A stretch of DNA of 57,052 nucleotides from an uncultured virus (IMG/VR IMGVR_UViG_3300028393_000031). Taxonomy: Duplodnaviria; Heunggongvirae; Uroviricota; Caudoviricetes. The stretch lies in the IMG/VR virus record IMGVR_UViG_3300028393_000031, one strand, 5' to 3'. The notes beneath the pieces are model-generated. The model saw only the letters and a program-made list of their open reading frames with translations, ran no database searches and was not told the origin of the DNA. The position numbers and the translations under genes were made by a program. Numbering within the stretch: position 1 is the stretch's first letter; each line of letters starts with the position of its first letter. Shown one piece after another: positions 2,319-51,892 of the stretch.

Positions 2319-4232
2319 GTGGCAGTAATAAGAACATTTAAAAACGCAGTGCAAGCAGCGGCCATATTGGAAGATCCAATTCCTGGAAGTACCTACCTGT
2401 ATTTTCAAACAGATGGAGTTAATAAAACCACACTGACACCGCAGTTTGATGCACAGTATAACTTTAGTCCCAGTGGTATCTTGAGTAATGCACCAGCAAA
2501 CAGTGGACTTATAGCCGACCAACAGATAATGAATACATTTGGTACTCCTATACTAAGTGGAACAGTTAATCAACAATATAATATTAATTTTATTGAGTTT
2601 ACTGGCGTACTAGTACTCAACGGTGAAGTTACTCATTGCAGACATTTTAGTACTGCAACTAATACCTACCTCATCAATCTAGACCATGCCCCGTTCTTCT
2701 CCATGGACCCTAATTATCGCCCAAAACCAGCATCGTATTTTACAGATGGAACAAGCACAGTGGCCTATTGGGTCAAGTGGAATCAAAGTAACTCAGTTAA
2801 TACTCTCACTCAAGAAAGCACAAGATACGTGGTGCTGGTAAATGGTACCAGCGCTGGCATAGCGTCTGGGGCTACCATAGTGACTAACAGTAACTTTATT
2901 AGCACCGTGCCTAATAATAATATTACTTGTGCGCATGCCTATCCTATGTATAGAAACCCCAGCACGGGTAACATGGTATGGCATGGAATGTATACTACTA
3001 CAACATATCCTGGTGCAGGAACTGGGTTTACCTTAGGAAATGCATTTAGTCAACAAGGTACAACAATTCCTGCAACCACCAGTGGCGCCACCACTGGCGG
3101 TATTATAAATTACACAAATCAATTTGTTGGAGTAAGTGCAGTAGACGGGCTGGTGATAACATTACAGATTGGTACTACAGATGATATTAACCAACAATTT
3201 TGGAAATTCAATGATGGTGCCAATACAGCCACACAGTTAAATGCTTTTAGTGCAAGTCCTGCTGCCAGTGGCAGTAGTGTGGGCGGCAACAGAACCACTA
3301 CCCAAGGTAGTTATAAAGCCAAGTTTGCCAGCCGTTGGTTTACAGATCCGCTAACAGCAAACAGTCGTGGTTTCTATGTACCCTATGTAGACACCGCTGG
3401 CAACTACGCACCATTCTACTTTCAGTGGAATACTACAACTGACGCGTTCAGTCGTAACGCTACCAACTGTACTCTAAACTATGGTGGTAATAGTTTGAGT
3501 ACCTACTGGGCACCAGACGCTACCCAAACAGCAGCAATAAGTACTATATATGGCATGTCATCAGTTTGGTACAACGAAACATTTACTGTGGGCTCTAATC
3601 GATATATGATATTCATGCAGTTAAATGGAACTGGGGTAACTGCCGATTCGGCTCCAAAATCATGTACCTTTGTCTGCTATAGCGTAAACGCAGCGGATCC
3701 TAGGATCTTAACATATCACAGCAGCATTCCGGTACCCACAACACCAAAAAACATTGTTTGGTTGAATGATGCATTGACCATCTTGGGCGTGTTCTGTCAG
3801 AACAACTTTTACATCTACACCTTCACTGAAAGCAGTGGTTGGACTCGTACAGCAACTTTACCATTTCAATTTAGTGCAGTGGGTAGGGACAATCTGGGAC
3901 GTATCTGGGGAGTAGAGCCGGGACCATATCGTTGGGGTCGCATACACTTGATCAGTTTGACAGTACCAGTTACTATTGTGGTAACCCCAGATGCAACCAC
4001 CTACACCTATGCTGGTACACCTATCACTGGCAACTTGGCAGTTAAAGCACTGGATGCCAGCGGCAACAGGATCAGTACCACAGTCAAACTGGTTATCGAT
4101 GGCGGCAGTATGTTGTTTGGTGGTAGCAACTATACTACCACTGTCACCACCAGTGCCAGTGCAGATGTCAATGCAGCAGTTACCATATCCGGCGGAGGCG
4201 TCAGCAATATCATTGCCAGCGTGTCGGTATGA
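2319..4232 (+). CDS. Virion structural/appendage protein (paralog B of 191..2035)
   Basis: 637 aa, GTG start with SD AAGGA; full-length similarity to ORF 191. Confidence 0.7.
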   Translation: MAVIRTFKNAVQAAAILEDPIPGSTYLYFQTDGVNKTTLTPQFDAQYNFSPSGILSNAPANSGLIADQQIMNTFGTPILSGTVNQQYNINFIEFTGVLVLNGEVTHCRHFSTATNTYLINLDHAPFFSMDPNYRPKPASYFTDGTSTVAYWVKWNQSNSVNTLTQESTRYVVLVNGTSAGIASGATIVTNSNFISTVPNNNITCAHAYPMYRNPSTGNMVWHGMYTTTTYPGAGTGFTLGNAFSQQGTTIPATTSGATTGGIINYTNQFVGVSAVDGLVITLQIGTTDDINQQFWKFNDGANTATQLNAFSASPAASGSSVGGNRTTTQGSYKAKFASRWFTDPLTANSRGFYVPYVDTAGNYAPFYFQWNTTTDAFSRNATNCTLNYGGNSLSTYWAPDATQTAAISTIYGMSSVWYNETFTVGSNRYMIFMQLNGTGVTADSAPKSCTFVCYSVNAADPRILTYHSSIPVPTTPKNIVWLNDALTILGVFCQNNFYIYTFTESSGWTRTATLPFQFSAVGRDNLGRIWGVEPGPYRWGRIHLISLTVPVTIVVTPDATTYTYAGTPITGNLAVKALDASGNRISTTVKLVIDGGSMLFGGSNYTTTVTTSASADVNAAVTISGGGVSNIIASVSV

Positions 4233-4241
4233 GGACGGCCT

Positions 4242-7200
4242 GTGTCTGCAATACTATCCAGTCTTGATCTAGTAGTCAACCGCCTTACAACCATAACGGT
4301 TGTACAGAGTGGTCCTCAACTCAAAACCACACTGGCAGCAACTCCTGCCGAAACAGTTGTAAGTACCAGCAGCAATGTGGGTATACATAGGATCAACACC
4401 ACTCCGGAATTAAGCAACACAATAAGAGTGGCCTATCCCACCAGCAGTTTTGGCGGTGCCCAATTTGCAGTGGTCGACAGCGTAACCACAACTACATCGG
4501 CCAACGCCAACAGTTTTGCAGTTACTGGTGCAACATCAGTACTTGGCGGGGGATTAAATTACACGTATGGTAGCATAGTTTCAAACGTTAGTGCATATGC
4601 AACAGTAACTTATACCACCCCTGGCACTTATACTTGGACTTGCCCTGAAGGTATAACCATTATAAGTATGGTAGGCATAGGTGGTGGTGGGGGCGGCCAA
4701 CAAAAAGCTGCTGGCGGTGCTGGCGGCGCCGGAGGCTTAATTGATTACTATAATGCTTATACAGTGACGCCTGGTACCAATTATACCATTGTTGTAGGAG
4801 GCCGCGGCAGTCCAGGAACCGCGGCCGGTGATAACGGGGACGCAACTTATTTTATTGATGCCGCTGCAACTGCGCCTGTTATATATGCAGCCGGCGGCAC
4901 CGGTGGCGGCAATATGAGTTGGTTAACTGGTGGTACCGCTGGTAGTATTATTAATAGCACGTATTCTTCAATTGACACATTTACTGCACAAGACTCCAAT
5001 GGCGGAACTATAACTTACAGTGTCGCTAATGGTCCAACCGGTTTAGTAATAAATGCATCTACTGGTGTAATGTCTTATAGCCAACAATCAAGTCCCTCTC
5101 TGTCTGATGGTTACCTTATTACAATTAATGCGACATCAACTAGTGGCAGCAGTATTGATAAATTTTATACATTAATATTTACTGCTGAATCTTATTTGTA
5201 CTATCTATTAGTAGCCGGTGGTGGTGGCGCAGGCGCAGATGGCTCAGTATCTGCAGCCAGTCCGGGCACAGGAGGTGGTGGTGGTGTGGTGTTGGGATCA
5301 ATTGCAATAACATTGGGCAGCGGTTTAGTTACCATTGGTAGTGGCGGCAGCTTAGGTAGCAATGGTGGTAACACCAGTGCAATTGGCACAGCAGTATTTG
5401 GGACTAATGGTGTAGTTGCTATTGGCGGCGGCGCCGGCGGCAGTGCATTAACTGGTACCGGTGGTGGTGCAGGCGGCTCGGGCGGCGGTGGCGGGTATAG
5501 TCCCGACTTGGTTAGCGGCTCGGGCGGCGCGGGCTTACAGCCCACTAGTACGTGGGGCGGTTACGGTACCGGCGGTGCAGCTGGAAATCAAGGTGGCCTT
5601 GGTGGCAGTGCTGGTGGATCGGCTCTAAGCACATTTGCCGCAGGCAGCTTGTTGTTCAATGGTACCAGTCAGTCTCTTACATTTTCAGCACAAACTGCAC
5701 TTTCGTTTGGTACTGGAGATTTAACCATAGAGATGTGGGTGTATCCTACTACTCTTGCACCTGATGGTGGATATGCAGGGATAATAGATGCAAGATCAGG
5801 AACTGCAAGCACATCATGGACAGTTGGCTTAATTTTATCTGCAGGTAATATGTATGCTTACATGGGAATAGGAAATTCAGGAAATCCGACTGGTTCTACT
5901 ATAATTCCATTAAACGCTTGGACACATATAGCTTGGACAAGACAAAGTTCTACATTTAAAATTTTTGTTAATGGTGTTATAGACTACAATGCCAGCGAGA
6001 CTCGTGCAATTGATGCCGGAGGTACTAGTCAAACAATAGGAAGACATAACGAAGCAGGACGTTATTATCGTGGTTACCTCACTAACATTCGTATAGTAAA
6101 AGGTACCGCAGTATATACTTCTGCGTTTGCGCCAATTGTACCGTTATCTAATGTCACCAACACATCGTTACTGTTATTAGTCAACAGCGATGCTACTAAA
6201 ATAACGGATTCAAGTACTAGTCTAAAAACGCTAACCAACGTTGGTAGTGTAACTTACAGCAGTAGTGTAGTACCATCGGCATCAAACACAGCAGGTACAA
6301 CAGCATCGGGTAGCTTGGTGTTTAATGGTTCTAGTTATGTAAGTTATCCAAATAATGCTGCTTGGGCTTTTGGTGCAGGCAATTTCACTGTTGAATGTTG
6401 GTTTTATCAGACTGCTTACTCGGCTAGCGGAACTGGTAACAGTTTGGTAATGCTTTGGCATTCAGGCCCCGGTAGGGCCTTCAACTTCTATGTGAATTCT
6501 GGTGGGAGCCTCGGAGCTGGTTGGAATACATCTAACAGTACGAGTGGTGGCTCTACTAGTTTAAACACCTGGTACCATGCAGCTTTTGTTAGAAACGGTG
6601 CTAGCTTTTATCTTTATTTAAACGGCGCACAAGTTGCTACCGCTGCGGCAGCAACAATTGCAGCCAGCTCTGACCCACTGTTTATTGGCGCTAATAATGA
6701 TGCAGCAAGCCCAACCTGGTTCTTTCGTGGATACATAACCAATGTTAGAATAGTCAAAGGCACTGCCATGTATACCAGTAACTTTGCTCCAACGGTACCG
6801 TTGGCACTGGTTTCTGGTACATCACTATTGCTGACTGTTGCCAACAATACCAACAGAGCAGTTGACAGTAGCAGTAATAATTTTACCCCAACAGTCAGTG
6901 GTGCTACATTTAGCAGTACAGTAGTTCCTAGTATAGGCGCTACAGTTACCACAGCCGGCGGCAGTTTTTTGTTCAACGGCACCAACGCCACACTGACTAG
7001 CCCAATTAATGCAGCATTCAATCTTGCAGCTGATTTTACACTCGAAGCTTGGATATACTTCCAAGGTACCACCGCCGCCTGTACTATTATGGGGCATCAG
7101 GCTGGCCCAAGTCCTGGCCGCGGCTGGTTGTGGGGGTTGAGCGGTACCGGAGAACCAAATTTTGGTTGGTCTATAGCTGGAAATGGTAATATTGGTTCGG

Positions 7201-10200
7201 GTGGAACTTACTATGCCGGTGCCCTAGTTCCATTGAATCAATGGGCCCATGTGGCATTTGTAAGAAGTGGAACAACCTATAAATTTTATATAAATGGCAC
7301 TGCTGCTGGATCCGGAACCATGTCGGGTGCAGTAAGGCACGCGGGATCATTTGGCATAGGCTATACACCAAACGAAACCACAAGCGGACAGTCCTATTTC
7401 AAAGGTTACATGACCAACATCGGGATTGTCAATGGTACAGCCATGTATAATAGTTCGTTCATTCCAACTTTATTATCTGCGGTTACTAATACAACATTAT
7501 TGTTATTAGTTGCTAGCTCGGGCACATACTTAAAAGATTCCAGCGTTAATAATCTCACTGTAACCAGTGTTAATACCACTTATAACAGTACCATTGTTCC
7601 CACAGTAGTAGCTACTAGCGGGCCCATCGCAGTTAACATCCTGGGCAACGTCATTGCCAGATATTCCGACGGCGGATATGCAGCCAATAGCAGTGTTAAC
7701 TATGGTGGTGGTGGTGGCCGTGTTGGATATGGGGTTGCGGGCAATGCTGGAGTAGCTTACTTCTGGTATGCCGGGGCCAGTCGCAGTCCTAGCGGAGATT
7801 TAATTCAAAATATCTCATATGGCGGCACCAATTATTGGTTACACAAATTTGTAAACAGCCAATATCTTAATTTATACCAATTTGGTCTTAATCCACCAAC
7901 GCTGGTGGATTATATCGTTGTGGGTGGTGGAGGCGGCGGCGGCTATACACAGATCTCTAGCGGGTCGGCTGGGGGCGGTGGCGCTGGCGGTATAATAACT
8001 ACAGCGCAGTACAGTACCTACTTGAACGCTGGTGTAGTTAGTGCAACCAATAGCGCATTTGCCATGGGCACCAGTGATTTTACCGTAGAAGGTTGGGCTT
8101 GGATTGATCCTGCATGTGACGCATTGGGCGCCTTTGTGTGTAGTGTATCTAGCAGTCAGCAGGGATTTTTAGTGTATAGAGATGGTGGTGGTGGCATTTT
8201 AAATGCCAATGGTGCAGGCGGTAGTGCTGTAAGCTGGTTAACTGCTTTGCCTACCAGTACCTGGTTCCACTTTGCGCTAACTATGCAGTCAAATACCATT
8301 AGACTCTATAAAGACGGTGTTTATCAAGGTTCCACTACTAATATATATTCTAATAATTCAACCACAATAGCCTTGGGTACCAGATACACAAACAACAATT
8401 CTTGGCCATTTGTGGGATATATAACCAACGTCAGGGTAGTGAGCGGTACTGCTTTGTATACTACAACTGGCACCTTCGCAGTAGCCACTACTCCATTAAC
8501 AGCTATTTCTGGCACTGTGTACTTGACTGCTACTACTGCCACTTTACAGGACATGGGTCCAAATCGGGTTTCTGTTATTGGAACTGGAACTGTAGGTTAT
8601 AGCGCCAGTCAAATACCTTTTGCTAGTACAGCAGCATTTGCCGTAACACAGGGCACTAGTTATACAGTTACAGTAGGTGCTGGAGGTGCAGGAGGCACTA
8701 CAGGCAACGGCTCTAGCGGATCTAATAGTATTTTGGGTACCGTGGGCGGTAGTTTAAGTTTTAACGGTAGCAACAATGTAAGTGTTCCCTACAGTGCAGC
8801 AGCATTCCAAATGACTGGAGATTTTACAATAGAATGTTGGATATATCCAACTTCATACAGTGGCCCAAATGCTCATGCCAGAATGATATTTTCTAACGGT
8901 GGGCAAAGTGGTGGCGACACCGACGGATATAGTCTTCTTATCGCATCTAGCGGTCTTTTTGTTGCAACAAGGTCGGGTAGTGGAAATTATTCTTACCCCA
9001 CTGCTGGTATCGCACCGTTGAATGCTTGGAGTCATGTGGCCTATGTTCGCTCTGGCGGAAATCATAATATTTGGTTCAATGGGGTATTTAACAGCTACAC
9101 CGGCAATCAAATCACTGGTAGTATAGGAAATTCAGGTTATCCGTTTTATGTAGGTGATGAATCAGTTAACTACCGCTGGAACGATCCGTTTGTTGGATAC
9201 ATTACCAACGTTAGGGTGGTTAATGGAACTGCAATGTATACCACTGCACTGTACCCCACTGGATTTACACCAGCAGTTCCGTTGAATGTTACTAATACAA
9301 AATTATTATTAAATGTAACCACCAGTGCATTATATATAACTGATACTAGTAGTAGTCCTCTTACCCCAGTAAATAATGGTGGAGTTACATTTAGTACACT
9401 TGCTCCAGGCGGCATTGCTACTGGCGTATATGCCACAGGCGGTGGTGGAGGTGGCTATGCTGCCAACGCCTCACCGTATGCTTACGCAGGTTTATTGGGC
9501 GGATCAGGCGGCGGCGGCGCAGGTGGGACTGCGGCCGGTACTGGTGGTGCAGCCATGGCTGGCCAAGGATTTGCAGGTGCAGCTGGCTCTAGTACTTCGA
9601 CAGCATTTGGTGGCGGTGGTGGGGGAGGAGGAGGAGGTGCAGGATTGGCGGGATCGGCCAGTGCTGGTGGTGCAGGAGGTGTAGGAGCCATAACGCCATT
9701 GATTACCACTACGCAGGCCAATACTGCGGTAATTGGACAAGTTGTAACTGGTAATGTTTATTTTGGTGGCGGTGGTGGCGGTGGTGTATATGCTAGCACC
9801 GCCATTGGTGCCGGCGGAGTGGGCGGCGGTGCAAGTGGTGGCAGCGCGATAGTATCTGGTGCTGTAAGTTTTGCTGGTGCTGGACAATATTTAAAAATTG
9901 CTTCCACCTATGACGCTGCATGGTCATTCCCTGGAGATTTTACTATGGAGGCATGGGTATACTGGCCAGGTACAGTACCCACCGACGCCGGGCAGTACAC
10001 AATTATGAGTGACATGGAAACTGCTGAAAATCGGCAATGGGAATTCCAGTACTATAACAATTTTTGGCGCCTGGCTGCGTATGGGTCATCAACAAATTCT
10101 CCCAGTATATCGGCCTGGTCGATAGCTGGAAATAATACAGCAGGATCGGGAAAAATTGTAGGCAATACCTGGTACCATATAGCAGTGACAAGATCTGGCA

Positions 10201-10799
10201 CCACTGGAAAAATGTGGGTAAATGGCGTAGATGTTACTGCCAGTGATAGTATAGGCAGCAGCGACTTGACTTCTGCTAACAACGCCACCAGTGGGCATTC
10301 GGCACTGTATATTGGACAGTCGGGCATAAGTTCAACCTGGCGTTGGACCGGATATATCACCAACGTGCGTATAACCAAAGGACAGTCATTATACAATACT
10401 GCATTTACCCCAGCTGCGCCTCTGTCGGCTGGAGCCAATACTACAGTGTTATTATTGTTTAATACAGATCTTACTAAATTAGTTGATTCGAGTACAAATG
10501 CTTTTCCAGTAGTCAACAACGGCAGCGTAACCTGGTCAAATTCAACTTTACCATCCGGTAGTGGCGGCCTAATAGCCAATGGCGCCGCCGGAACTGTCAA
10601 CACCGGTGGTGGCGGTGGTGGTGCAGGAGCTAAATCCGGCGGCGGAGGTGCAGGGGGCGCAGGTGGTGCAGGTGTAGTCGTCATCCGTTACCCAGATGCA
10701 TATAACATTGCAGCAAGTACTACAGGTAGCCCAATATTGGAAACTGCCAATGGATATAGGACATACATATTCAAGACTTCTGGCTCGATCACATTCTAA
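4242..10799 (+). CDS. Giant fibre/adhesin: glycine-rich domains, an Ig-like domain and six LamG/ConA-like modules
   Basis: 2185 aa, GTG start with GAGG SD. Six repeats of the S(L/V)xFNG...DFTxExW...W(T/Y)H(I/V)A...GY(I/L)TN(I/V)R pattern. Gly-rich motifs TTPGTYTWT, YIVVGGGGGG and GVVVIRYP. Confidence 0.85.
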   Translation: MSAILSSLDLVVNRLTTITVVQSGPQLKTTLAATPAETVVSTSSNVGIHRINTTPELSNTIRVAYPTSSFGGAQFAVVDSVTTTTSANANSFAVTGATSVLGGGLNYTYGSIVSNVSAYATVTYTTPGTYTWTCPEGITIISMVGIGGGGGGQQKAAGGAGGAGGLIDYYNAYTVTPGTNYTIVVGGRGSPGTAAGDNGDATYFIDAAATAPVIYAAGGTGGGNMSWLTGGTAGSIINSTYSSIDTFTAQDSNGGTITYSVANGPTGLVINASTGVMSYSQQSSPSLSDGYLITINATSTSGSSIDKFYTLIFTAESYLYYLLVAGGGGAGADGSVSAASPGTGGGGGVVLGSIAITLGSGLVTIGSGGSLGSNGGNTSAIGTAVFGTNGVVAIGGGAGGSALTGTGGGAGGSGGGGGYSPDLVSGSGGAGLQPTSTWGGYGTGGAAGNQGGLGGSAGGSALSTFAAGSLLFNGTSQSLTFSAQTALSFGTGDLTIEMWVYPTTLAPDGGYAGIIDARSGTASTSWTVGLILSAGNMYAYMGIGNSGNPTGSTIIPLNAWTHIAWTRQSSTFKIFVNGVIDYNASETRAIDAGGTSQTIGRHNEAGRYYRGYLTNIRIVKGTAVYTSAFAPIVPLSNVTNTSLLLLVNSDATKITDSSTSLKTLTNVGSVTYSSSVVPSASNTAGTTASGSLVFNGSSYVSYPNNAAWAFGAGNFTVECWFYQTAYSASGTGNSLVMLWHSGPGRAFNFYVNSGGSLGAGWNTSNSTSGGSTSLNTWYHAAFVRNGASFYLYLNGAQVATAAAATIAASSDPLFIGANNDAASPTWFFRGYITNVRIVKGTAMYTSNFAPTVPLALVSGTSLLLTVANNTNRAVDSSSNNFTPTVSGATFSSTVVPSIGATVTTAGGSFLFNGTNATLTSPINAAFNLAADFTLEAWIYFQGTTAACTIMGHQAGPSPGRGWLWGLSGTGEPNFGWSIAGNGNIGSGGTYYAGALVPLNQWAHVAFVRSGTTYKFYINGTAAGSGTMSGAVRHAGSFGIGYTPNETTSGQSYFKGYMTNIGIVNGTAMYNSSFIPTLLSAVTNTTLLLLVASSGTYLKDSSVNNLTVTSVNTTYNSTIVPTVVATSGPIAVNILGNVIARYSDGGYAANSSVNYGGGGGRVGYGVAGNAGVAYFWYAGASRSPSGDLIQNISYGGTNYWLHKFVNSQYLNLYQFGLNPPTLVDYIVVGGGGGGGYTQISSGSAGGGGAGGIITTAQYSTYLNAGVVSATNSAFAMGTSDFTVEGWAWIDPACDALGAFVCSVSSSQQGFLVYRDGGGGILNANGAGGSAVSWLTALPTSTWFHFALTMQSNTIRLYKDGVYQGSTTNIYSNNSTTIALGTRYTNNNSWPFVGYITNVRVVSGTALYTTTGTFAVATTPLTAISGTVYLTATTATLQDMGPNRVSVIGTGTVGYSASQIPFASTAAFAVTQGTSYTVTVGAGGAGGTTGNGSSGSNSILGTVGGSLSFNGSNNVSVPYSAAAFQMTGDFTIECWIYPTSYSGPNAHARMIFSNGGQSGGDTDGYSLLIASSGLFVATRSGSGNYSYPTAGIAPLNAWSHVAYVRSGGNHNIWFNGVFNSYTGNQITGSIGNSGYPFYVGDESVNYRWNDPFVGYITNVRVVNGTAMYTTALYPTGFTPAVPLNVTNTKLLLNVTTSALYITDTSSSPLTPVNNGGVTFSTLAPGGIATGVYATGGGGGGYAANASPYAYAGLLGGSGGGGAGGTAAGTGGAAMAGQGFAGAAGSSTSTAFGGGGGGGGGGAGLAGSASAGGAGGVGAITPLITTTQANTAVIGQVVTGNVYFGGGGGGGVYASTAIGAGGVGGGASGGSAIVSGAVSFAGAGQYLKIASTYDAAWSFPGDFTMEAWVYWPGTVPTDAGQYTIMSDMETAENRQWEFQYYNNFWRLAAYGSSTNSPSISAWSIAGNNTAGSGKIVGNTWYHIAVTRSGTTGKMWVNGVDVTASDSIGSSDLTSANNATSGHSALYIGQSGISSTWRWTGYITNVRITKGQSLYNTAFTPAAPLSAGANTTVLLLFNTDLTKLVDSSTNAFPVVNNGSVTWSNSTLPSGSGGLIANGAAGTVNTGGGGGGAGAKSGGGGAGGAGGAGVVVIRYPDAYNIAASTTGSPILETANGYRTYIFKTSGSITF

Positions 10800-10800
10800 G

Positions 10801-10806
10801 TAAATA
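10801..10806 (+). promoter_or_regulatory. Late promoter, probably giving a leaderless mRNA
   Basis: TAAATA ends 5 nt before ATG 10812; no SD. Confidence 0.65.
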
Positions 10807-10811
10807 CTAGT

Positions 10812-13800
10812 ATGACAATAAGTAGCTCGTTTCTATCAAACGTCACAGTTGAAACACTGGTAGTGGCCGGTGGCGGTGGCGGAGGAACTAACTATAACCT
10901 GCGTGGTGCAGGTGGCGGAGCAGGGGGATTAGTCTACATTGGTAATCTACAAATACCTGCAGGAACCACCGCCAATGTTGTAGTTGGCAGTGGCGGATTG
11001 GTCAGTGCCAGAGGCGGCGACAGTGCCATATTACCTTATGTGCCCACCTACAGCCATTGGTTTAATGGTTATAGCACTTACGACTATTTAACAGTTACAA
11101 ATACAGCATATCCGTTCAGTCTGGGTGGTGACTTTACTGTCGAAGCCTGGATCTATCTTAATGCTTATGGATCTACCTACACTAGTATTGTTGATACCAG
11201 GACTGGTGCGGTGGCTCAAACTTGGAACTTTGGTGTTTACGGCACCGGCTTGGATTTTTATTGGGGCGCAAGTAGGGCGACCAGCAGCATGCGAGTTCCA
11301 AGTGGACAGTGGACACATGTCGCAGCTACTCGACAAAGCGGTAATGTATATCTCTACGTAAATGGATATCGTGATGCTATCTCGGTTACTGGTGTTACTA
11401 CCTGGATGCAGCAAACGAGCACGACAGTTTGGATTGGTAATAACAGAGATGGTGCAGCCACCGGGCAAAACACATACTCGGCTAATGTCTATATTTCAAA
11501 TCTACGGACTGTATCGGGTATTGCTGTCTACACCGGCAACTTTACACCGCAAACTACAAATTTATCTACCACACAGTCCAGTGGTGCCAACATTGCTGCT
11601 ATTTCTTCATCGCCAACGGTAGCAAACACAGGGGTATTCAACGGAACAACTAGTTATCTTCTACACACTTATGCAGGCAACGGGCCCATGGATTTAGCCA
11701 CAGGACAACCCAGCTGGACTGTAGAATGTTGGTTCTATTGTACTAATTATGCTGCCAAGCAAACTGCCATATTTGATGCAAGTGGTCGAGTAGGTGTTGC
11801 TAATTCGGCGTTGGCGTTTTGGTTAAGTGCAACCGGAGTAGGCGCCTGGATCATAGGCAACGGTGGCGGCGGCTATATAGCCTATGTACCCACCATGGCT
11901 ACTACATTTACACTTGGCACCTGGTATCATGTTGCAATGGTACGCAACACCAGCACAGGTCGAGCTCAAGTATATGTCAATGGGGTATTAGATGCAAATT
12001 CCAATATTGTTACCAGTGGTAGCATGGCCAACGCCTATAGTTTGGACTTTTCAATAGGCAGTGATATCGCCACACAGCTGGCGGGAGCTTCATTATTTTA
12101 TGGATATATAAGTAATTTACGAGCAGTTAAAGGTGTTGCTGTATATACCGGCAATTTTACTGTGCCATCAATACCACTGACAGTTACACAAAGTTCTAGC
12201 GGTAACATAGCGGCTATCTCTGGTTCACAAACCAGTTTATTGATACTACAAGGAACACCTATAGCGGATGCAAGTTTAAATTCTATATCTATAACTAATT
12301 CTGCAGTGACAATGACTCAGTTAGTGGTTGGAATTGGTACTACATTTTTAAGTTTGCAAAATTCAACTCTAATAGATAACAGCATAGCTAATTCACCAAT
12401 CGTAAAATACTATGGTAGTGTGAGTCCCAGCATATTTTCACAGAGTACACCAGTGACTGATGGATACGCCAGCGTCTACTTCAATGGTGCAACCCTGTTG
12501 CAGTACACCAACTCAACAGCACTGACTACAATAGCTGCTGTTGATGTTAGTGCGAATCAATTTACCGTGACCAGTACAGCATCAATACCAAACGTGATTG
12601 CAACAGCACCTGCAATTACACCTTTGGGCACTGTAAACAGTATTAGTTTTGCTGGTAGCCAATATTTAACGGTAACAGCAAACGCCGCCTTTGCATATGG
12701 CACTGGTAGTTTTACTGTTGAGTGTTGGGTTTATATAACTACAGCTTTGGCTGCTGGTGCGTTTGTTGGCCCATGGACTGGTACCGCAGCAACCAGCTCT
12801 TGGGTTTTTACACAAGGCAGTCCTACTGCTACTAATTTAAGATTTGGTGTTTCAGATGGAACAACAGCAACATTTTATCAAGGCGGTGGAGGATTATCCA
12901 TAAACACATGGATACATGTAGCTGCGGTTAGAAATGGTACTACACTGACATTGTATTCTAATGGAACATCAGTATCCACAAACGCTGGTATTTCTACAAA
13001 CATATCAGTGGCATCACAGGCACTACAAATTAACGGTGTCGCAGGAGCAACTTTTTTAACAACTGGTTACATATCCAATCTACGTATAGTCAAAGGTGTA
13101 GCAGTCTACACCGGCAATTTCACAGTACCCACTGCCCCATTAACAATTACCCAAAGTTCTAGCGGCGCAAATATTGCAGCCATCACAGGCTCACAAACCA
13201 GCCTGTTACTGCAACCTGTTGCTGGATGGACAGCAGAATGTTGGGTTAACCCATCTGGCGACTATAGTACTTATAGGACCGTATTTGCCAAACGTGTAAA
13301 TGCCACAGTCACCACCGAATATGAGGGTTACCTGCGATTGACCAGTGGTGTTATCAGTTTCTATAACGGAACCAATTACGAAAGCACAACAACATTAACT
13401 GCCAACACCTGGAGCCACTGTGCCTGGGTTTACACTGGAACCAATATTGTTATCTATGTAAACGGGACGCAAGTATACACAAGCGCAGTCACTATCACCA
13501 CCAATACTGAACCCATGATTATTGGCGGTGTTAGGACCGGTAGTGAATATTTTCTTGGCTTCTTGAGTAATTTCCGTTTTACTAGAGGAATTGTATATAC
13601 CGGCGCATTTACCCCACCCACTACACCACTGCGAGCTACTCAAACTGTGTCAGGCAACATTGCTGCCATTACTGGCAATGCCAGCAGCAGTACCAGCTTG
13701 TTGGTATTACAGAGCAGTACCTATAAAGACAACAGTGTGAACAATTACTTATATGGTTACAGCTATACTATCTACACCGGTACACCCATAATCAAAACCG

Positions 13801-15368
13801 ATGTTGCACCGTTTGTTGATCCTGTGCGCGGTATTGTTGCTTATGGTGGTGGTGCAGGTGCATTTAATAATACAACAAACAATGCCAATACAGGCGGGTC
13901 AGGTGGCGGCAGCTGGTATCCTGGTTACGTTGGCGCCCCAGCAAGCCAACCCCCCACTAGCTATTATGCTGGCATTGCTTATACTAATACTGGCTTTGGC
14001 AATACAGGCGGACTAGGTGGTGGAGTGCAGCCATATGGCGGCGGCGGTGGCGGCGCCGGCGGCGTTGGATCTGGATACACAGACATATATGCTGGAGGTG
14101 GTGGAATAGGTCGCCAATACACAATAAGTGGCGTACCTGCATACTATGCAGGCGGCGGTAGCAGTGCAGCATACCCACTCGAAGCTGGATACTTAATAAA
14201 TGCCGGTGGCCTAGGAGGTGGTGGACAGGGCGACAACAGTGTATGGGCAGCAACACAAGTTACAGGTTACACAGGCAGCACTGGTACTGTTAACGCAACT
14301 GCCAATGGCTCGCCATATACCGGCGGCGGCGGTGGCTCGGGTGGTTGGGGTGGTTCGGGCATAGTCATCATGCGCTATCTAGGCACACAAATAGCCACCG
14401 GCGGTACAGTAACATCAATCGGCGGATATACCATACACACATTTACCACAGCAGGAACATTTACTATAGCTGCTAATATTTCAGTTGGCAGCGCAGGCGG
14501 CAACGGTGGACCTTACGCCGGCGGAGGTGGTGGCGCAGCAGGTTACCTGGGCTTTGGCGGCAACGGTGCAGCAGGGGCCAGCCTAGCAGCTGGCAGCTAC
14601 GGCATCGGCGGCGGTGGGGGAGGTGGTGGCTCCAGTGCAACATTTGGCGGAGGTGGCGGCGGAGTGGACATTTGGGGCCTAGGTGGATATTCTGGTGCAG
14701 GAGGCACAGCAGGTCAACCCGGCACTGGTGGTAGTCCAGAAGTTACGCTTGGCCTGACTGGCAATGGCGCACAGCCTGGATTTGGCAGCAATGGCGGACT
14801 CTACGGTGGCGGAGGTGGCGGCGGCGTTACTAGTTCATTGGATACCTCACGTGGATGGGGAGCAAATGGTGCATTTGCACTGGTATATTCAACTACATCT
14901 AGCACCTATACATATCCATACATCAGTCCAATCAATTTGGTGTACCTTGGCAATCTACAATCTACAAATACAACCCAGTTTACTTCAAATGTGTCAGGTG
15001 TGATAACGGACTCGAACTTTGATCAAAACGTAATTGGGAACCTGGCATACAGCCAAACCAGCGTAAACATGCCAGTCGCATACGAGTCACAGTATACCAA
15101 TAATACTGTTTCTGTATACAGAACCGCATCATTAGCAGCCAATAATGTCATAGCCAGCGACATCACAGTGACCGTCAACTATCAAGCCGAGTGGATGCTG
15201 CGTAATAGCGATCCTGCTTTTCCGGCCACATATGATAAGCCGTTTAATTATCAAACTGCTCAACCAGTGACTACTACCAATGATCCACGTAAGCTAACAT
15301 TGAAAGCCAGCTTTATTACCAAAACTGGTACTCAACAAGATCCCACTGAGCCGGATCAGTACCTATAA
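10812..15368 (+). CDS. Giant fibre/adhesin: glycine-rich domains with four LamG/ConA-like modules
   Basis: 1518 aa with four LamG cores (FTVEAW, WTVECW, FTVECW, WTAECW). C-terminus similar to that of ORF 15385 (NSD...NYQTxQPVT..NDPR...LK). Confidence 0.85.
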   Translation: MTISSSFLSNVTVETLVVAGGGGGGTNYNLRGAGGGAGGLVYIGNLQIPAGTTANVVVGSGGLVSARGGDSAILPYVPTYSHWFNGYSTYDYLTVTNTAYPFSLGGDFTVEAWIYLNAYGSTYTSIVDTRTGAVAQTWNFGVYGTGLDFYWGASRATSSMRVPSGQWTHVAATRQSGNVYLYVNGYRDAISVTGVTTWMQQTSTTVWIGNNRDGAATGQNTYSANVYISNLRTVSGIAVYTGNFTPQTTNLSTTQSSGANIAAISSSPTVANTGVFNGTTSYLLHTYAGNGPMDLATGQPSWTVECWFYCTNYAAKQTAIFDASGRVGVANSALAFWLSATGVGAWIIGNGGGGYIAYVPTMATTFTLGTWYHVAMVRNTSTGRAQVYVNGVLDANSNIVTSGSMANAYSLDFSIGSDIATQLAGASLFYGYISNLRAVKGVAVYTGNFTVPSIPLTVTQSSSGNIAAISGSQTSLLILQGTPIADASLNSISITNSAVTMTQLVVGIGTTFLSLQNSTLIDNSIANSPIVKYYGSVSPSIFSQSTPVTDGYASVYFNGATLLQYTNSTALTTIAAVDVSANQFTVTSTASIPNVIATAPAITPLGTVNSISFAGSQYLTVTANAAFAYGTGSFTVECWVYITTALAAGAFVGPWTGTAATSSWVFTQGSPTATNLRFGVSDGTTATFYQGGGGLSINTWIHVAAVRNGTTLTLYSNGTSVSTNAGISTNISVASQALQINGVAGATFLTTGYISNLRIVKGVAVYTGNFTVPTAPLTITQSSSGANIAAITGSQTSLLLQPVAGWTAECWVNPSGDYSTYRTVFAKRVNATVTTEYEGYLRLTSGVISFYNGTNYESTTTLTANTWSHCAWVYTGTNIVIYVNGTQVYTSAVTITTNTEPMIIGGVRTGSEYFLGFLSNFRFTRGIVYTGAFTPPTTPLRATQTVSGNIAAITGNASSSTSLLVLQSSTYKDNSVNNYLYGYSYTIYTGTPIIKTDVAPFVDPVRGIVAYGGGAGAFNNTTNNANTGGSGGGSWYPGYVGAPASQPPTSYYAGIAYTNTGFGNTGGLGGGVQPYGGGGGGAGGVGSGYTDIYAGGGGIGRQYTISGVPAYYAGGGSSAAYPLEAGYLINAGGLGGGGQGDNSVWAATQVTGYTGSTGTVNATANGSPYTGGGGGSGGWGGSGIVIMRYLGTQIATGGTVTSIGGYTIHTFTTAGTFTIAANISVGSAGGNGGPYAGGGGGAAGYLGFGGNGAAGASLAAGSYGIGGGGGGGGSSATFGGGGGGVDIWGLGGYSGAGGTAGQPGTGGSPEVTLGLTGNGAQPGFGSNGGLYGGGGGGGVTSSLDTSRGWGANGAFALVYSTTSSTYTYPYISPINLVYLGNLQSTNTTQFTSNVSGVITDSNFDQNVIGNLAYSQTSVNMPVAYESQYTNNTVSVYRTASLAANNVIASDITVTVNYQAEWMLRNSDPAFPATYDKPFNYQTAQPVTTTNDPRKLTLKASFITKTGTQQDPTEPDQYL
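13076..13159 (+). repeat. 84-bp near-perfect direct repeat, copy 1 (copy 2 at 16341-16424)
   Basis: caatctacgtatagtcaaaggtg(t/c)agcagtctacaccggc...acccaaagttc; one mismatch in 84 nt by manual alignment. Confidence 0.9.
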
Positions 15369-15373
15369 CCAGT

Positions 15374-15379
15374 TAAATA
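15374..15379 (+). promoter_or_regulatory. Late promoter, probably giving a leaderless mRNA
   Basis: TAAATA ends 5 nt before ATG 15385; no SD. Confidence 0.65.
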
Positions 15380-15384
15380 CAAGT

Positions 15385-17967
15385 ATGTCATTTAGCCAAA
15401 TAACTGCCGTAGATCTAGTAGTAAATCAAATAGTTACTATAGTCACCAAGTACAGCCCGTCATCACCTGCAGGCGTTAATACCACGGGAGACGTCGTTCC
15501 TACTGAAACCATAGTACGTACCAGCAGCAATGTGGGCTTGAATCAGATCAACACCAGGCGGGAGTTGTCCAACACGGTACAGGTCTACAATCCACTGTAT
15601 TCATTTGGCAATCAGACATTTAACTACTCAAATAGTCCGTTGCCGGATATTAAAAGTCAATTGAGTATAACTCAACCGATTGATCTGGGTAATCGCCCGT
15701 TTGGTTTTAATATAATTGGCAATGCTACACCGGTTGTGGATACTGGGGCATCGTATGGTCAGCAACCTTTCTTAATTTATAACACATTGCCTACGGTCTC
15801 TTCACTTGATCCAGTATTGGAATTGACCAACAACAATGTTGGTGGCCTGGCTGTTATTGGAAGCCTTCGGGGGTATGGTAGTATATTGTTTAATGGTACT
15901 AGCCAATATTTAACAGTGGCTGCAAATGCCGCATTTGATTTTAGTACTGGTGATTTCACCATGGAATGTTGGATATACACAACAAGTTTGGCTGCTACTC
16001 AACAAACAATTGATCTCTTTAGCAATGCAGCTGGATCATATATCGTTGGACAATGCCAACTTCAATTGTTAACTACCGGAGCGGTTGCTTTTGCTTATGC
16101 CACCTCCACCTCCGCTGCTACCTTTTTTGGCACAGCAGCATCGGCAGTGACCATAAACTCTTGGTATCATATTGCTGTGGTTCGGTCAGGCTCTGCCGTT
16201 GGAAACTTAAAAATTTATGTAAACGGCGTGCTTGCAGCAACCAGCGCAGGAGCATTGACCCAAGCCTTTGGTACCACTGGATCAATGTCCGTTGGTAGAC
16301 AAACAAATAATACTAGTAACTTCTTTTCTGGTTATATTAGCAATCTACGTATAGTCAAAGGTGCAGCAGTCTACACCGGCAATTTCACAGTACCCACTGC
16401 CCCATTAACAATTACCCAAAGTTCCGGCACAAACATCTCGGCCATTACAGGCTCACAAACTAGTTTGTTATTGAATACCCCATTTAATGCAGCTGCCCTC
16501 AATGATACCTCATCGTTTGGGTTCACATTAACAAATACAGGTACAGCAACATCTAGTTCTATAAATCCATTTCCGCCAGGTAGCGTACTGCTGAACGGTA
16601 CTACTCAATCACTCACAGCAAACACAGCAGCCACCTGGACCTACCTACACAATGGATTGCAGGACTATACAATAGAATGTTGGTATCGTAGTAGCTCTAC
16701 TGTATATCAAAATCTATTAGGCACCAGTGGCACGACTGCATCCATTGGCTTTGAGTTGTCAATAAACAACCCCACAGTGGGAGCAGTGACAGTGGTTTAC
16801 ACTAGGGGTGTGTCAACTAATAACACATGGACTTATGCGAACAGTGCTGTTGCAACCAATGCCTGGTACCATGTGGCAACAACTTTTGCCAGTAGTACAA
16901 AACGATCAAACATTTATGTAAATGGTAACTTGGCAGGTACTGCTGCTAATGTGGCGTTTGCTTATAGCGCATCAGCACCCACAAACACATTGGGCATTGG
17001 GTTTACCACTGGCACTGGGCAATTCAACGGTTACATGACCAGTGTGCGTATAACTAAATCTATCGTATATACTGCAAACTTTACACCAGCAGTTCCGCTG
17101 ACCAGTATCAGTAGCACACAATTATTATTACAGTTCAATTCCAGTGGTGCTTTGTTGACTGATTCTGGCCCCAATAACAATACCATTACCAACGTTGGTG
17201 CAGCAACATTTTCTACAGTTGCGCCAACTGTGGCCAATGTGGCCACAGTGAACAATTACTACAACTACTCACAATTGTATTTTAACGGTGGGTTGAATAT
17301 ACCCTACGGAGATATTACATCAAACGTATTAGCGTCTAGCAGCCCAGTTAATACCTATACCAATCCCAGTGGTGCAATGTTGAATGCAAACGCCAGTATA
17401 CTGACCACCGGCACTGTTGATAGGGTTGGCCGTTTTGACCAAAGTAATGTTACTGTAATTTCTGTTAATCTACAGCCAGGTTCGGTGGCAACACAGGCTG
17501 GCTCACAGGTGTTGTTAGCAGATCTATCGCAGGATATCCAGTCTAATCACATCAGCGGTTACCTTGCCCTTGGGGCACCATTCCTCTATTATGATTTAGT
17601 GTCGACGCCCGCTACGTATAACACAGCCAATTATTCTGCACCTGCGCTAGTAAACCAAACTATAAATTTTGATCTAGGTCAAAAAAACATATCATCACAA
17701 CGCTACTTTGTGCCCAACGGTGCCTCTGTGAATTCGGTAACAAATAACCGGTCGCCGCAGCAGACTATCATTGTAAATGCACAGCCCGAATTTATGCTGG
17801 TCAATTCGGATCGGAACTTTGTAGCTAGTAATGTTAATCCAACCAATTATCAAACTATACAACCTGTCACGCCCGACAATGATCCGCGTTTGGCCAGCTT
17901 AAAGGTAGGATTTGCAGTCAAAGGTCAAACTGGAACTAACCCGTATAATCCACAAAACATCTATTAG
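15385..17967 (+). CDS. Fibre/adhesin protein with two LamG/ConA-like modules
   Basis: 860 aa with two LamG cores. N-terminus similar to that of ORF 4242; C-terminus similar to that of ORF 10812. Confidence 0.85.
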   Translation: MSFSQITAVDLVVNQIVTIVTKYSPSSPAGVNTTGDVVPTETIVRTSSNVGLNQINTRRELSNTVQVYNPLYSFGNQTFNYSNSPLPDIKSQLSITQPIDLGNRPFGFNIIGNATPVVDTGASYGQQPFLIYNTLPTVSSLDPVLELTNNNVGGLAVIGSLRGYGSILFNGTSQYLTVAANAAFDFSTGDFTMECWIYTTSLAATQQTIDLFSNAAGSYIVGQCQLQLLTTGAVAFAYATSTSAATFFGTAASAVTINSWYHIAVVRSGSAVGNLKIYVNGVLAATSAGALTQAFGTTGSMSVGRQTNNTSNFFSGYISNLRIVKGAAVYTGNFTVPTAPLTITQSSGTNISAITGSQTSLLLNTPFNAAALNDTSSFGFTLTNTGTATSSSINPFPPGSVLLNGTTQSLTANTAATWTYLHNGLQDYTIECWYRSSSTVYQNLLGTSGTTASIGFELSINNPTVGAVTVVYTRGVSTNNTWTYANSAVATNAWYHVATTFASSTKRSNIYVNGNLAGTAANVAFAYSASAPTNTLGIGFTTGTGQFNGYMTSVRITKSIVYTANFTPAVPLTSISSTQLLLQFNSSGALLTDSGPNNNTITNVGAATFSTVAPTVANVATVNNYYNYSQLYFNGGLNIPYGDITSNVLASSSPVNTYTNPSGAMLNANASILTTGTVDRVGRFDQSNVTVISVNLQPGSVATQAGSQVLLADLSQDIQSNHISGYLALGAPFLYYDLVSTPATYNTANYSAPALVNQTINFDLGQKNISSQRYFVPNGASVNSVTNNRSPQQTIIVNAQPEFMLVNSDRNFVASNVNPTNYQTIQPVTPDNDPRLASLKVGFAVKGQTGTNPYNPQNIY
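16341..16424 (+). repeat. 84-bp near-perfect direct repeat, copy 2
   Basis: Matches 13076-13159 at 83 of 84 positions. Confidence 0.9.
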
Positions 17968-17999: not shown

Positions 18000-18005
18000 T
18001 AAATA
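18000..18005 (+). promoter_or_regulatory. Late promoter, probably giving a leaderless mRNA
   Basis: TAAATA ends 4 nt before ATG 18010, inside the small inverted repeat AGTGTAT/ATACACT. Confidence 0.55.
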
Positions 18006-18009
18006 CACT

Positions 18010-21000
18010 ATGAAAATTGCTATTATCGACATCATCGGCCTACCATACGATGGAACTACTGTGTTTAAACAGGGACTTGGTGGATCCGAAAGTGCTGTAA
18101 CTTTTATGGCACGAGAACTGGCACAAATTGGATTCGATGTCACAGTATTCAATAATTGTAATATAGATCAAGCACAAGCCGGTGTGTATGATTTAGTTAC
18201 TTACTGTCCGCTTACCGATCTAGCCTCAGAACATTCATTTGATATTGTTATCAGTAGCAGGACAGTAATTCCTTTTGTAGATGCAATTGACTACCACAAA
18301 TTGCAAGATAATAGAGCATTTGCATTACAACCATATAATCTATACGACAGAATTATAGCTCAAGCAAAGATGCGCATATTGTGGATGCACGATACTTTTT
18401 GTTTAGGTGATAATTTAATAGAAGAATTAGCAGTTGCCGATCGTATCACAGATATATTCACACTTAGTGATTTTCACCTTACCTATGTGGCCAATTGCAA
18501 TCACGGGCGCAGAAGGAACTTTGAAGTATTAAAGCGTAAAATGTTTATTACCAGGAATGGCGCTAATTGCTATGTACCCGAAGTAGATATCGCTGCTAAA
18601 GATCGAAACTTATTTGTTTATAATGCCAGTGTAACTAAAGGTATGATACCTTTGGTGAATGAAATTTGGCCTAGAGTTAAATCACAAATTCCAGATGCTC
18701 GATTAAAAATAATTGGTGGCTACTATAGATTTAGTTCAGCATCAGAACCAGACGCACAAGAACAAGACTGGCGACGAATGGTTGCTGATCCCAAGTATAC
18801 CAATTGGGGAATAGAATTTCTAGGAGTGATACCACAACAACAAATTGGATCAATACTAGCGCAATCAAACTTTATGATATACCCTTGCGCATTTCCAGAA
18901 ACGTTTGGTATATCTATATTAGAAAGTCTACTGTACAATACTCCGGTTATTACTTGTAGATTTGGTGCAGCAGAAGAAGTAGCACTAGAAGGTGCCAGCT
19001 ACTTGATTGATTATCCAATTGAGCCTAATAGTTTATTTCCTGATGTTAATACAGCACAGCAAATTGATCAATTTGTAGCAATGACTGTGCGAGCCTATAA
19101 TGATACATATTTGCATCAACAAAAACAATATTATTGTAACATTGTAAAACCATTGGCTGGATGGGATACAGTAGCTTTGCAATGGAAACAGCTCTTCTTT
19201 CATCGATCCGGCAAGTACTTGTCGAGACAACAATATCAACAGATAACAAAAATAAATCGACAAGTTCATAAAGTTTGGCAGCGTAGATATCATAACGTAG
19301 TTGAACTAGAACACCATAAAACTGGAGCAGAGCAAGAAATAATTATTGTAAGCACGTTTTATAATTGTCATGATTATATAGCACGTTGTATTGAAAGTGT
19401 AGCTGCACAAGATTATGATAACTATCAACATATTTTAATTGATGATAAATCAACCGATAATACGGTTGAGGTTGTGCTTGCTACTTTAGATACATTACCT
19501 GAATACTTACGCAACCGTTTTGTTATAGTATCAAATAAAGAACGCTTAGGTGCAGTATATAATCAAGTTGCATCTATTAGAGAAATAGAGAATCCTAATG
19601 CTATAGTAATGATACTTGACGGCGACGATAGTCTAGTCAACGATAACACCATATTCAATTATTATAACGCCATATACGACGGCACTACTGAATTTACATA
19701 TGGTTCATGTTGGAGTATGGTCGATAACATACCATTGATTAGTCAACCATATCCAGAGTCTGTTAAACAAGCCAAATCATATAGACAACATCATTTTAAT
19801 TGGATATTGCCGTATACACATTTACGAACATTTAGGAAATATCTCATTGAAGACATTCCAGACAGCAATTTCCAAGATAGTACCGGTAAATGGTTCAAGG
19901 CCGGTGGCGATGGATCTACTTTTTATAGTCTAATAGAAGCAGCAGATCCTGCACAAGTAAAATGTTTACAACAAATAGTTTATAATTATAATGATGCCAA
20001 TCCATTAAATGATTATAAAGTGAATAGTAAGGAACAAACAGCCGCGGCACAGGCTATTATTAATAAACAAACAAAACCTGTTGTGGCGCCCGATACAAAG
20101 AAATATTCTATTGTAGTGCCCACCATGTGGAGATTAAAAGATCAATTTGTTTCTTTTATTAATCAGTTGTGTTTGCATCCTGCTGTAGATGAGATTATTA
20201 TTATTGATAATGATAATACACAAACACCTCAATTGTCTCATGAAAAAATAAAAATAAAAGATTTTGGCAAAAACATTTATGTTAATCCTGCTTGGAATCT
20301 TGGAGTAGTGGTTAGTCGTAATAATCGTATATGCATTCTCAATGATGATGTAATGTTTGATCTTGGCTTATTTGAAAAATTACAAGATCTGATTACTCCA
20401 GAATCTGGGGTGTTTGGATTGTGCCCGGGCGTATCAGATTTTAATCAGCCGCCGTACATTAATGGCGCCATAGATGTTATTCCGTGGACTACGCAACACA
20501 CCTACGGATTTGGTTGTTTGATGTTTATACATAAAGATTCATGGCAACCAATTCCAGAGGGATTAAAAATATATTATGGCGATAATTATATATTTGATTT
20601 ACAATTAAGTCGTAATAAAACTAATTATCTAATAACAAATGTAATGTTCCACACGCCATTTGCTGTCACTACGTCTGATACTAGCATCACTGATGGGTTT
20701 CTAGATAAAGAGACTATAGAGTATCAGCAAGTCAATCCGTTAACAAATAAAAATATTATGCCTATTCCAAATAAGAAAAAAATTCTAATAGCTATACCAA
20801 CAGCCAAATATATAGAGCCAGAGACATTTAAAAGCATCTATGATTTAATTGTGCCTGATGATTGCGAAGTAACATTCCAATACTTTTTTGGATATCGCGT
20901 GGATCAAGTACGTAATTTAATAGCAGACTGGGTAGTTAACGGATTTGATTATTTGTTTAGTGTTGATAGTGATATATCGTTTGAAAGAGATACATTACAA

Positions 21001-21372: not shown

Positions 21373-22058
21373 CTACATTAGAAGAAAAACAAACTCGGCT
21401 TCGAGAGTTGGGCAGTCAAAGATTAATGCCATGGGATCATGTCAAGTATCTCATGTATCTGCAACGCGAATATAATTTTAATCCTACAGTTGTCTATGAT
21501 GTTGGTGCATGTGTATTGCATTGGACAAACGAAGCTCGACAAATATGGCCTACTACAGATTTTGTAGTTTTTGAAGCAATGGATACCAGTGAATTTTTGT
21601 TTAAAGAACAAGGGTTAAAATACAACATTGGGGTATGCAGTGATGTTAGCGGAAAAGAAGTTGATTTTTATCAAAACGATTATCATCCTGGCGGCAATAG
21701 TTACTACAAAGAAAACGAAGCAGTCAATCCCGAAGCACCTGACTATTTCAATGAGTCACATCGTCGCAGATTAACCACTGTTACATTAGATGATGTTAGA
21801 CGTCAAAAGTCTTTTCCTATGCCACAGTTAATTAAGATGGATGTTCAAGGTGCAGAACTAGATGTACTTAAAGGTGCAGTTGAAACATTACAATCAGTTG
21901 AGCATGTTATATTAGAATTACAAATTGTTGAATATAACAAAGGTGCACCGTTAAGGAATACTGTAATTGAATATATGAGCAGTATTGGATTTGAATGCAT
22001 GGGCCTGTTTAGTAACAATGGCCCAGACGGCGACTACCACTTTGTGCGTAGACATTAA
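21369..22058 (+). CDS. FkbM-family SAM-dependent methyltransferase
   Basis: VYDVGAC and LIKMDVQGAELDVLKG motifs; ATGA overlap with the upstream glycosyltransferase. Confidence 0.88.
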   Translation: MTTLEEKQTRLRELGSQRLMPWDHVKYLMYLQREYNFNPTVVYDVGACVLHWTNEARQIWPTTDFVVFEAMDTSEFLFKEQGLKYNIGVCSDVSGKEVDFYQNDYHPGGNSYYKENEAVNPEAPDYFNESHRRRLTTVTLDDVRRQKSFPMPQLIKMDVQGAELDVLKGAVETLQSVEHVILELQIVEYNKGAPLRNTVIEYMSSIGFECMGLFSNNGPDGDYHFVRRH

Positions 22059-48111: not shown

Positions 48112-48113
48112 TT

Positions 48114-49726: not shown

Positions 49727-49730
49727 TTTT

Positions 49731-51185: not shown

Positions 51186-51267
51186 TATTTTTATAAAATA
51201 TTTATAGACATTAAATACTACTATAAAATTAACTTGCTATTCAAATTGAAATATGCAATAATACATA

Positions 51268-51885: not shown

Positions 51886-51892
51886 AAATAAA

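Follow-up and report, generated by a model that had tools for sequence, protein, structure and literature searches.

The long tail fibre of phage T4 (gp34-gp37) is built from a proximal protein that binds the baseplate and a distal protein that carries the tip, both encoded by adjacent late genes, and to our knowledge its joints are not formed by halves of one domain. In nested fibre-like proteins that combine Gly_rich_2 (PF21722) with LamG domains, complete lectin-like domains sit inside a permissive loop of the glycine-rich domain. According to PMC9608196, glycine-rich motifs form a scaffold near the distal end of myovirus fibres in gp38 of Salmonella phage S16 and gp24 of cyanophage Pam3, with a proposed role in receptor binding. 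Here we describe two adjacent open reading frames (ORFs), ORF 4242 and ORF 10812, in a 57,052-nucleotide stretch of DNA from an uncultured virus (IMG/VR record IMGVR_UViG_3300028393_000031; the whole stretch is called the window below). One glycine-rich domain of the Gly_rich_2 type, which we call the hub, appears to be divided between these two genes, with an insert of 3183 codons between its halves. A third gene, ORF 15385, is a paralog without the hub (Table 1). We consider it likely that the locus represents an ancient nested-domain architecture, with two genes that together encode one conserved tail fibre.

The hub begins in ORF 4242, where amino acids (aa) 125-222 align to positions 1-97 of the 226 positions of Pfam Gly_rich_2 with 44.6 bits. 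A hidden Markov model (HMM) of the LVVAGGGG..IVIIRY subtype, built from nine intact domains, scored the piece that starts at 14475 in ORF 10812 at -21.6 bits, and hhalign gave a probability of 0.7 %; we set this negative result aside because the reference subtype is the wrong one for that piece. A motif scan revealed a second subtype that starts with TPGTYTW and continues with GGGVGIYG, GGLYGGGG and GNGAVRIIW in this order. It is contiguous in other proteins: of the 267 compared, 123 contain it in unbroken form, with 175 such domains in all. On an HMM of 257 positions derived from nine contiguous TPGTYTW domains of other proteins, ORF 4242 aa 123-237 maps to positions 2-114 (71.9 bits) and ORF 10812 aa 1202-1358 to positions 93-256 (11.9 bits, E 1.8e-4), the confident columns stopping at aa 223 of the former and restarting near aa 1225 of the latter. 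Six such C-terminal halves (C-halves) from different proteins extend from positions ~93-142 through 256 with E values of 8e-7 to 2.5e-4; the five besides that of ORF 10812 start at ~116-142 and run to the end.

Joining the two pieces in silico gives a protein of 520 aa with one single match that covers positions 2-256 at 93.2 bits. For comparison the native first 520 aa score 71.7 bits, while two joins to wrong partners score 62.4 and 49.2 bits. Because the placements are complementary and the join scores as one domain, the stretch at 4608-4910 and the piece from 14475 are best read as the two halves of one TPGTYTW-type domain, with breakpoints good to a few residues. The preliminary description of this DNA had seen a glycine-rich domain break off at 4911 and resume at 14475, and its proposal that the rejoined halves align as one domain agrees with these scores. 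One other protein (P0079) has the TPGTYTW hub on one polypeptide with no interruption at this site; its hub is split instead near position 145, where one glycine-rich domain is nested.

The outer ends of the two proteins meet in ORF 15385, which shares its N-terminus with ORF 4242 (47 % identity over 75 aa, E 3e-16) and its C-terminus with ORF 10812 (50 % identity over 64 aa, E 1e-13), as had been recognised before. Since the anchor of the one and the tip of the other together match a single chain, we infer that the two proteins form one two-protein fibre. Neighbouring genes for a gp15-like protein, the sheath and the tube, an anchor common to the paralogs and a variable middle make up a tail-fibre setting. 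The LamG, immunoglobulin-like (Ig) and glycine-rich arms presumably bind glycans on the host surface.

We found the same layout in relatives of the window. The contig L003, with proteins 70-76 % identical, carries all three genes as well (1471, 1505 and 526 aa), together with the same junction peptides, GGTGGGNMNWLTGG and TFTIAANISIGS, and L024 repeats the layout with both junctions and two genes; these are the two relatives that span both junctions. The paralogous fibre of the ORF 15385 lineage consists in L024, L025 and L026 of two genes with the same plan, gene 1 containing the anchor, the N-terminal half of the hub (N-half), an 'xxYW' linker and Ig, and gene 2 a glycine-rich domain, a beta1-like motif, the C-half and the tip. 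Its junction residues are SSLYW and LDTGQ, without AATAT. At greater distance the trio of anchor, N-half and Ig is found in proteins of 33-36 % identity (P0065, P0066, P0068, P0070, P0076, P0196), and the C-half with the tip in proteins of 42-45 % identity (P0159 to P0163, P0164, P0166, P0167, P0169). Because both combinations persist at 33-45 % identity, the two junctions are old module edges. The Ig linker module follows the N-half without exception in the 23 proteins that contain N-half and Ig, and the middle modules are the main difference among relatives. Viral contigs were also searched for the loci of P0169, P0079 and P0070 and none were found.

The boundary between the genes is itself variable. 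Both genes are in one frame in the window, separated by a single TAA and 12 nucleotides (nt). Across seven adjacent gene pairs (window, L003, two in L023, L024, L025 and L026) the spacers measure 1-46 nt, and the frame is common to three of the seven. The window and L024 keep the frame with a spacer of 12 nt, whereas 13 nt in L023 and 46 nt in L003 put the second gene out of frame. Because spacer length and frame vary among relatives, we conclude that the two genes are truly separate. Programmed read-through of the in-frame TAA was considered and rejected, as the two genes lie in different frames in L003 and L023.

Nesting is found at more than one level in this family. In the LVVAGGGG subtype whole LamG domains lie in one loop, as in ORF 10812 where aa 8-67 and 1007-1189 flank ~940 aa, and a split near positions 92-95 of the HMM of this subtype recurs in at least 12 other proteins. 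In the TPGTYTW hub the opening lies at the corresponding site, positions 100-112, and the hub holds everything from the Ig through the beta1-like motif, including the gene boundary. A single gene of 390 aa (P0011) aligns to the L026 proximal protein until just before the hub and, from aa 180, to P0015 just after the C-half; therefore the hub and the whole insert are one indel between single-gene and two-gene fibres. Anchor and tip occur together in six proteins, all of them without the glycine-rich hub, and ORF 15385 is this anchor and tip form with two LamG domains added.

The preliminary description had interpreted the locus as a complete 3183-aa fibre gene that, carried on a DNA circle, integrated Campbell-style through the 5-bp AATAT into a 520-aa gene and thereby created two new chimeric fibres. 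Much of what it built on is correct: AATAT stands in identical codon phase at 4911-4915 and 14475-14479, the two flanks belong to one domain as its halves, and the insert holds a stop, a TAAATA motif and an ATG. The block arithmetic holds as well (9564 nt = 3 x 3188; 223 + 297 = 520 aa; 1221 + 1962 = 3183 aa), and, compared with a simpler fibre, a large in-frame block with a gene boundary inside one glycine-rich domain stands, whereas the circle and the permuted whole gene do not. The junctions are conserved in L003, L024, the paralog lineage and proteins of 33-45 % identity, and a scar of 5 bp could not outlast such divergence. AATAT corresponds to the codons Asn-Met at the first site and Asn-Ile at the second in one lineage and recurs in L003 and L024 because the encoded residues are conserved; in L025 the second site is AACATC, and different residues stand there in the paralogs. 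The 'NMSW' linker with Ig always follows the N-half and never the beta1 motif. Circularising the block does give one continuous gene of the predicted length, but every in-frame insert with a single stop would do so, and the continuity is not evidence. TAAATA does precede ATG 10812 (10801-10806), but TAAATAC-N3-4-ATG is also found before the two genes that follow, at 15385 and 18010. No integrase or recombinase family was found in a Pfam scan of 28 ORFs of the window, in line with the earlier remark that none is visible. Neither the unpermuted gene (beta1 motif joined to the 'NMSW' linker and Ig) nor an empty-site form occurs in any of the 267 proteins, and no joint from 4910 to 14475 is among the contig joints listed. 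The layout thus appears to be old and conserved and not a recent circle insertion, and we regard the circle as highly improbable. An artefact of assembly is more improbable still, to the point of being negligible. The DNA is G-rich and repetitive, with short spurious joints and a spike in depth at 13916-14349, which would favour mis-assembly, but error-free public contigs from four runs, two of which are not the likely source, bridge 4911 in four of four and 14475 in three of four, and the independent contigs of L003 and L024 have the same layout.

Several points weigh against our interpretation. A Pfam search with the piece from 14475 found no match at E<=1, and its match to the TPGTYTW HMM is weak, with a high glycine bias (84). 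These results, together with the negative outcome of the first HMM and of hhalign, are what would be seen if the halves were unrelated glycine-rich segments alike by composition, in beads-on-a-string fibres that share their ends. We consider this improbable, given that six C-half modules map to the same end of the model, the motif order is that of the contiguous domains, P0079 is contiguous across the site, and the join gains 21.5 bits while wrong partners lose 9 to 22 bits. N-half and Ig are also found with other C-termini and without the C-half (P0066, P0070, P0076, P0196), and C-half with tip stands behind an unrelated N-domain in P0169; the hub halves may therefore be independent modules today. 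The anchor-like segment and the tip-like end of P0079 were recognised by eye only. An intermediate in which anchor, contiguous hub and tip form one protein of ~520 aa is found in none of the 267 proteins, and insertion and deletion would both fit the indel that separates single-gene from two-gene fibres. The fibre function itself is predicted from gene context and domain types. A further alternative is an origin in one step by means other than a circle, with a linear fragment across the junction of two fibre genes put into the hub by an ancient double crossover or illegitimate insertion; stop and start would then be as old as the insert. It is consistent with the absence of the tip from all 23 proteins that have N-half and Ig, with the lack of any chain in which Ig and C-half are fused, with the split in seven of seven gene pairs and with the conservation of both insert ends in both paralog lineages. 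Conversely P0079 nests within the hub in one polypeptide, and boundaries move: the junction from Ig to glycine-rich domain is fused in ORF 4242 and P0068 and is a gene boundary in L026. Few full loci are sampled, and we judge an origin in one step unlikely, though less so than the other alternatives.

In the ancient nested architecture that we favour, the plan reads anchor, hub N-half, insert (Ig, glycine-rich and LamG arrays with the stop and start), hub C-half and tip. ORF 4242 carries the presumed baseplate anchor plus the hub N-half, and ORF 10812 the hub C-half plus the conserved tip. This order of modules, its conservation and the fit of the two halves are shown by the comparisons above. 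This 'Russian-doll' plan would be older than the duplication that gave the two fibre loci and older than the divergence of the relatives of 33-45 % identity. It would grow and shrink by gain and loss of modules and by recombination between repeated modules, the insert having grown stepwise and the gene boundary having been nicked in later. ORF 15385 and its relatives would represent the form without hub and insert, hence single genes.

How the two chains are joined is less clear-cut. From the logic of nested domains, it is conceivable that the hub halves re-pair in trans and so join the two-protein fibre, a possibility that we hold only tentatively. Such pairing would bring anchor and tip side by side at the hub and give a branched instead of a linear fibre, with two free lectin-rich arms of ~1960 aa and ~1220 aa (Ig, glycine-rich, LamG), and the gene boundary would be a tolerated nick within the nested loop. 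End-to-end docking or some other mode takes up the larger share of the probability. Against re-pairing, the L026 region homologous to the N-half with its Ig is confidently predicted to fold alone (predicted local distance difference test, pLDDT, 75-95), the module of N-half and Ig occurs in proteins without the C-half, and in P0169 the C-half follows an unrelated N-domain. The L026 proximal model is reliable for aa 145-343 only, and with it a PDB search finds just a cadherin-like Ig. The AlphaFold2 model of the distal protein P0018 has a pLDDT of 34.6, too low for use, and does not set the fold. We also considered a joint in which the beta1 motif at the proximal end completes the first distal domain (donor-strand complementation, with a beta2 start), an idea that fits seven gene pairs. 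It is weakened by three findings: a confident model assigns the final strand of the L026 proximal protein to its Ig, glycine-rich domains directly behind the Ig are without beta1, and other proteins, such as L004_6695, end in the motif with no beta2-start gene after them.

Table 1. Positions of the fibre genes and of their modules in the window
Feature	Position	Strand	Remarks
ORF 4242, proximal fibre protein	4242..10799	+	2185 aa, GTG start
ORF 10812, distal fibre protein	10812..15368	+	1518 aa
ORF 15385, single-gene paralog: anchor, 2 LamG domains, tip, without Gly-rich hub	15385..17967	+	860 aa
N-terminal anchor module (aa 1-70), common to ORF 4242 and ORF 15385	4242..4451	+	present in 22/267 proteins
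Hub N-half (aa 123-223), TPGTYTW-subtype Gly_rich_2	4608..4910	+	Pfam positions 1-97/226; own HMM 2-100 confident
'NMSW..' linker and cadherin-like Ig (aa 224-312), left end of nested insert	4911..5177	+	PF05345 on homologs; Foldseek cadherin EC matches
LVVAGGGG-type Gly-rich array with nested LamG (6 Laminin_G_3 stretches), final motif GYRTYIFKTSGSITF	5178..10796	+	
TAA stop and 12-nt spacer holding TAAATA (10801-10806)	10797..10811	+	
N-part (aa 8-67) of Gly-rich domain split by ~940 aa of LamG modules	10833..11012	+	own HMM 16-77, 41.8 bits; Pfam 16-74
C-part (aa 1007-1189) of the nested Gly-rich domain of ORF 10812	13830..14378	+	own HMM 94-256, 30.7 bits, E 8e-11
Beta1-like motif GGYTIHTFTTAGTFTIAAN, right end of nested insert	14418..14474	+	equivalent motif in P0018
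Hub C-half (aa 1222-1358), 'GGPY..VDIWG..GGLYGGGG..GAFALVY'	14475..14885	+	TPGTYTW HMM ~112-256; join test
C-terminal tip module, common to ORF 10812 and ORF 15385	14886..15368	+	present in 35/267 proteins

Laminin_G_3 (PF13385) scores above its gathering score in all three fibre proteins, with six stretches in ORF 4242 (321 bits), four in ORF 10812 (210.6 bits) and two in ORF 15385 (115.9 bits). Gly_rich_2 exceeds its cut-off of 24.3 in ORF 4242 (50.2 bits), and further matches to this family lie at aa 2092-2150 of ORF 4242 and aa 12-68 of ORF 10812. A globular domain of ~280 aa ('AYWFSTTKQPTPFQAYVKFNYIDGGDW...LPGYVWVR') forms the C-terminus of some fibres composed of anchor, N-half and Ig (P0066, P0070, P0076) and stands alone as a ~293-aa protein at four metagenome loci (L028-L031), a module that occurs fused or separate; a metagenome scan returned only stand-alone copies of this C-terminal domain.

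The paralogs share one stretch of DNA that is much more alike than the remainder of the two genes: 149 nt at 13063-13211 in ORF 10812 and 16328-16473 in ORF 15385, covering a LamG end and the linker 'YISNLRIVKG.AVYTGNFTVPTAPLTITQSS', are 88 % identical. This degree of identity suggests a recent gene conversion between the fibre paralogs and that they are still recombining. TAAATAC followed by N3-4 and ATG stands directly 5' of three consecutive genes (10801-10811, 15374-15384 and 18000-18009). The distance from TAAATAC to the ATG is too short for a Shine-Dalgarno sequence. It may be a late-promoter-like motif with leaderless or nearly leaderless mRNAs.

Support for the assembly was evaluated on assembled contigs of four public runs, and in two of the four runs error-free contigs also bridge the gene boundary at 10797-10812. 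Many joints in the glycine-rich DNA have one short side (20-24 letters) and are probably spurious. Contig depth reaches ~440-690 at 13916-14349 in all four runs, compared to 2-110 elsewhere, and many other organisms in the samples evidently carry this part of a glycine-rich domain letter for letter. One contig of the X2 run leaves the window after 4909 with a continuation that is still glycine-rich and in frame. A related fibre with another hub continuation exactly from the junction onward may be its source; we rejected it as the empty-site junction that the preliminary description predicted, since its next letters differ from those of the window after 14475.

The window appears to originate from an uncultured freshwater jumbo myovirus and covers genes for both structure and replication of a tailed phage. 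The Pfam scan identified a T4 gp15-like sheath stabiliser, a sheath, a T4-type large terminase and a RecA/UvsX-like protein, and PHROG matches add a tube and head-tail adaptor; the terminase shares 53 % identity with its counterpart in the jumbo Pseudomonas phage PA5oct. Nearly identical DNA was found in freshwater and lake metagenome runs. None of the cultured phages searched shares DNA with the fibre region, and the matches of cultured phages to ORF 15385 are confined to its LamG parts.

The two ORFs 5' of the fibres (191-2035 and 2319-4232; 614 and 637 aa) are without a Pfam family, each matches phrog_20698 with its C-terminal 250 aa, and they are probably paralogous structural proteins. 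Genes for sugar modification are abundant beside the fibres (18010-22058 and 47389-53029) and include a 1120-aa GT1 and GT2 protein, two FkbM-type methyltransferases, a GT9 heptosyltransferase-like protein, a further GT1 and a class I methyltransferase. The 1120-aa GT1/GT2 gene keeps its synteny in L003, L002 and L024. Loci of related phages contain single ORFs of 3492-4426 aa (L004 8375-19573, L005 8375-18853, L006 7142-20422) with LamG-type C-terminal endings ('..ARYTG.F.PP') and few glycine-rich matches, which points to further giant fibre-like genes.

This locus illustrates how the giant mosaic fibres of jumbo phages may be built, by nesting in the loops of glycine-rich scaffolds and with a gene boundary inside the nest. 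ORF 4242 and ORF 10812 are best annotated together as a single fibre system, in which the half domains should not be taken for pseudogene debris. If the halves do re-pair in trans, nature would have made a joint from a split domain and the receptor-binding organelle would be branched, which would interest those who study fibre assembly or engineer modular binders. More generally, a tidy pattern in which deleting a block restores a gene can stem from ancient nesting, and a mobile element is not required. Campbell integration as in lambda (attP x attB) likewise leaves a short identical sequence at both block ends. It differs from the present case, for which there is no recombinase, empty site, circular or unpermuted form or polymorphism, and where the repeat is 5 nt of coding sequence specific to one lineage.

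Our literature search retrieved no paper on PF21722 or Gly_rich_2, nor one that combines tail fiber, strand complementation and gene fission. A PDB sequence search with profiles of both proteins revealed no similarity to solved chains beyond cadherin. The split into a proximal and a distal protein resembles that of T4 gp34-gp37; no homology was detected, and the PHROG matches are to generic tail families. As in S16 gp38 and Pam3 gp24 (PMC9608196), variable parts are placed between the motifs of a conserved glycine-rich scaffold; here the variable parts are whole domain arrays, and the search revealed no sequence link to those two proteins. The closest parallel is the nesting of LamG domains in PF21722 proteins, from which the present fibre differs by an insert of 3183 codons with several levels, a gene boundary inside it, halves on two polypeptides and conservation in two paralog lineages. 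Nested mosaic fibre proteins are known; the unusual point here is that two conserved genes each encode one part of the parent domain.

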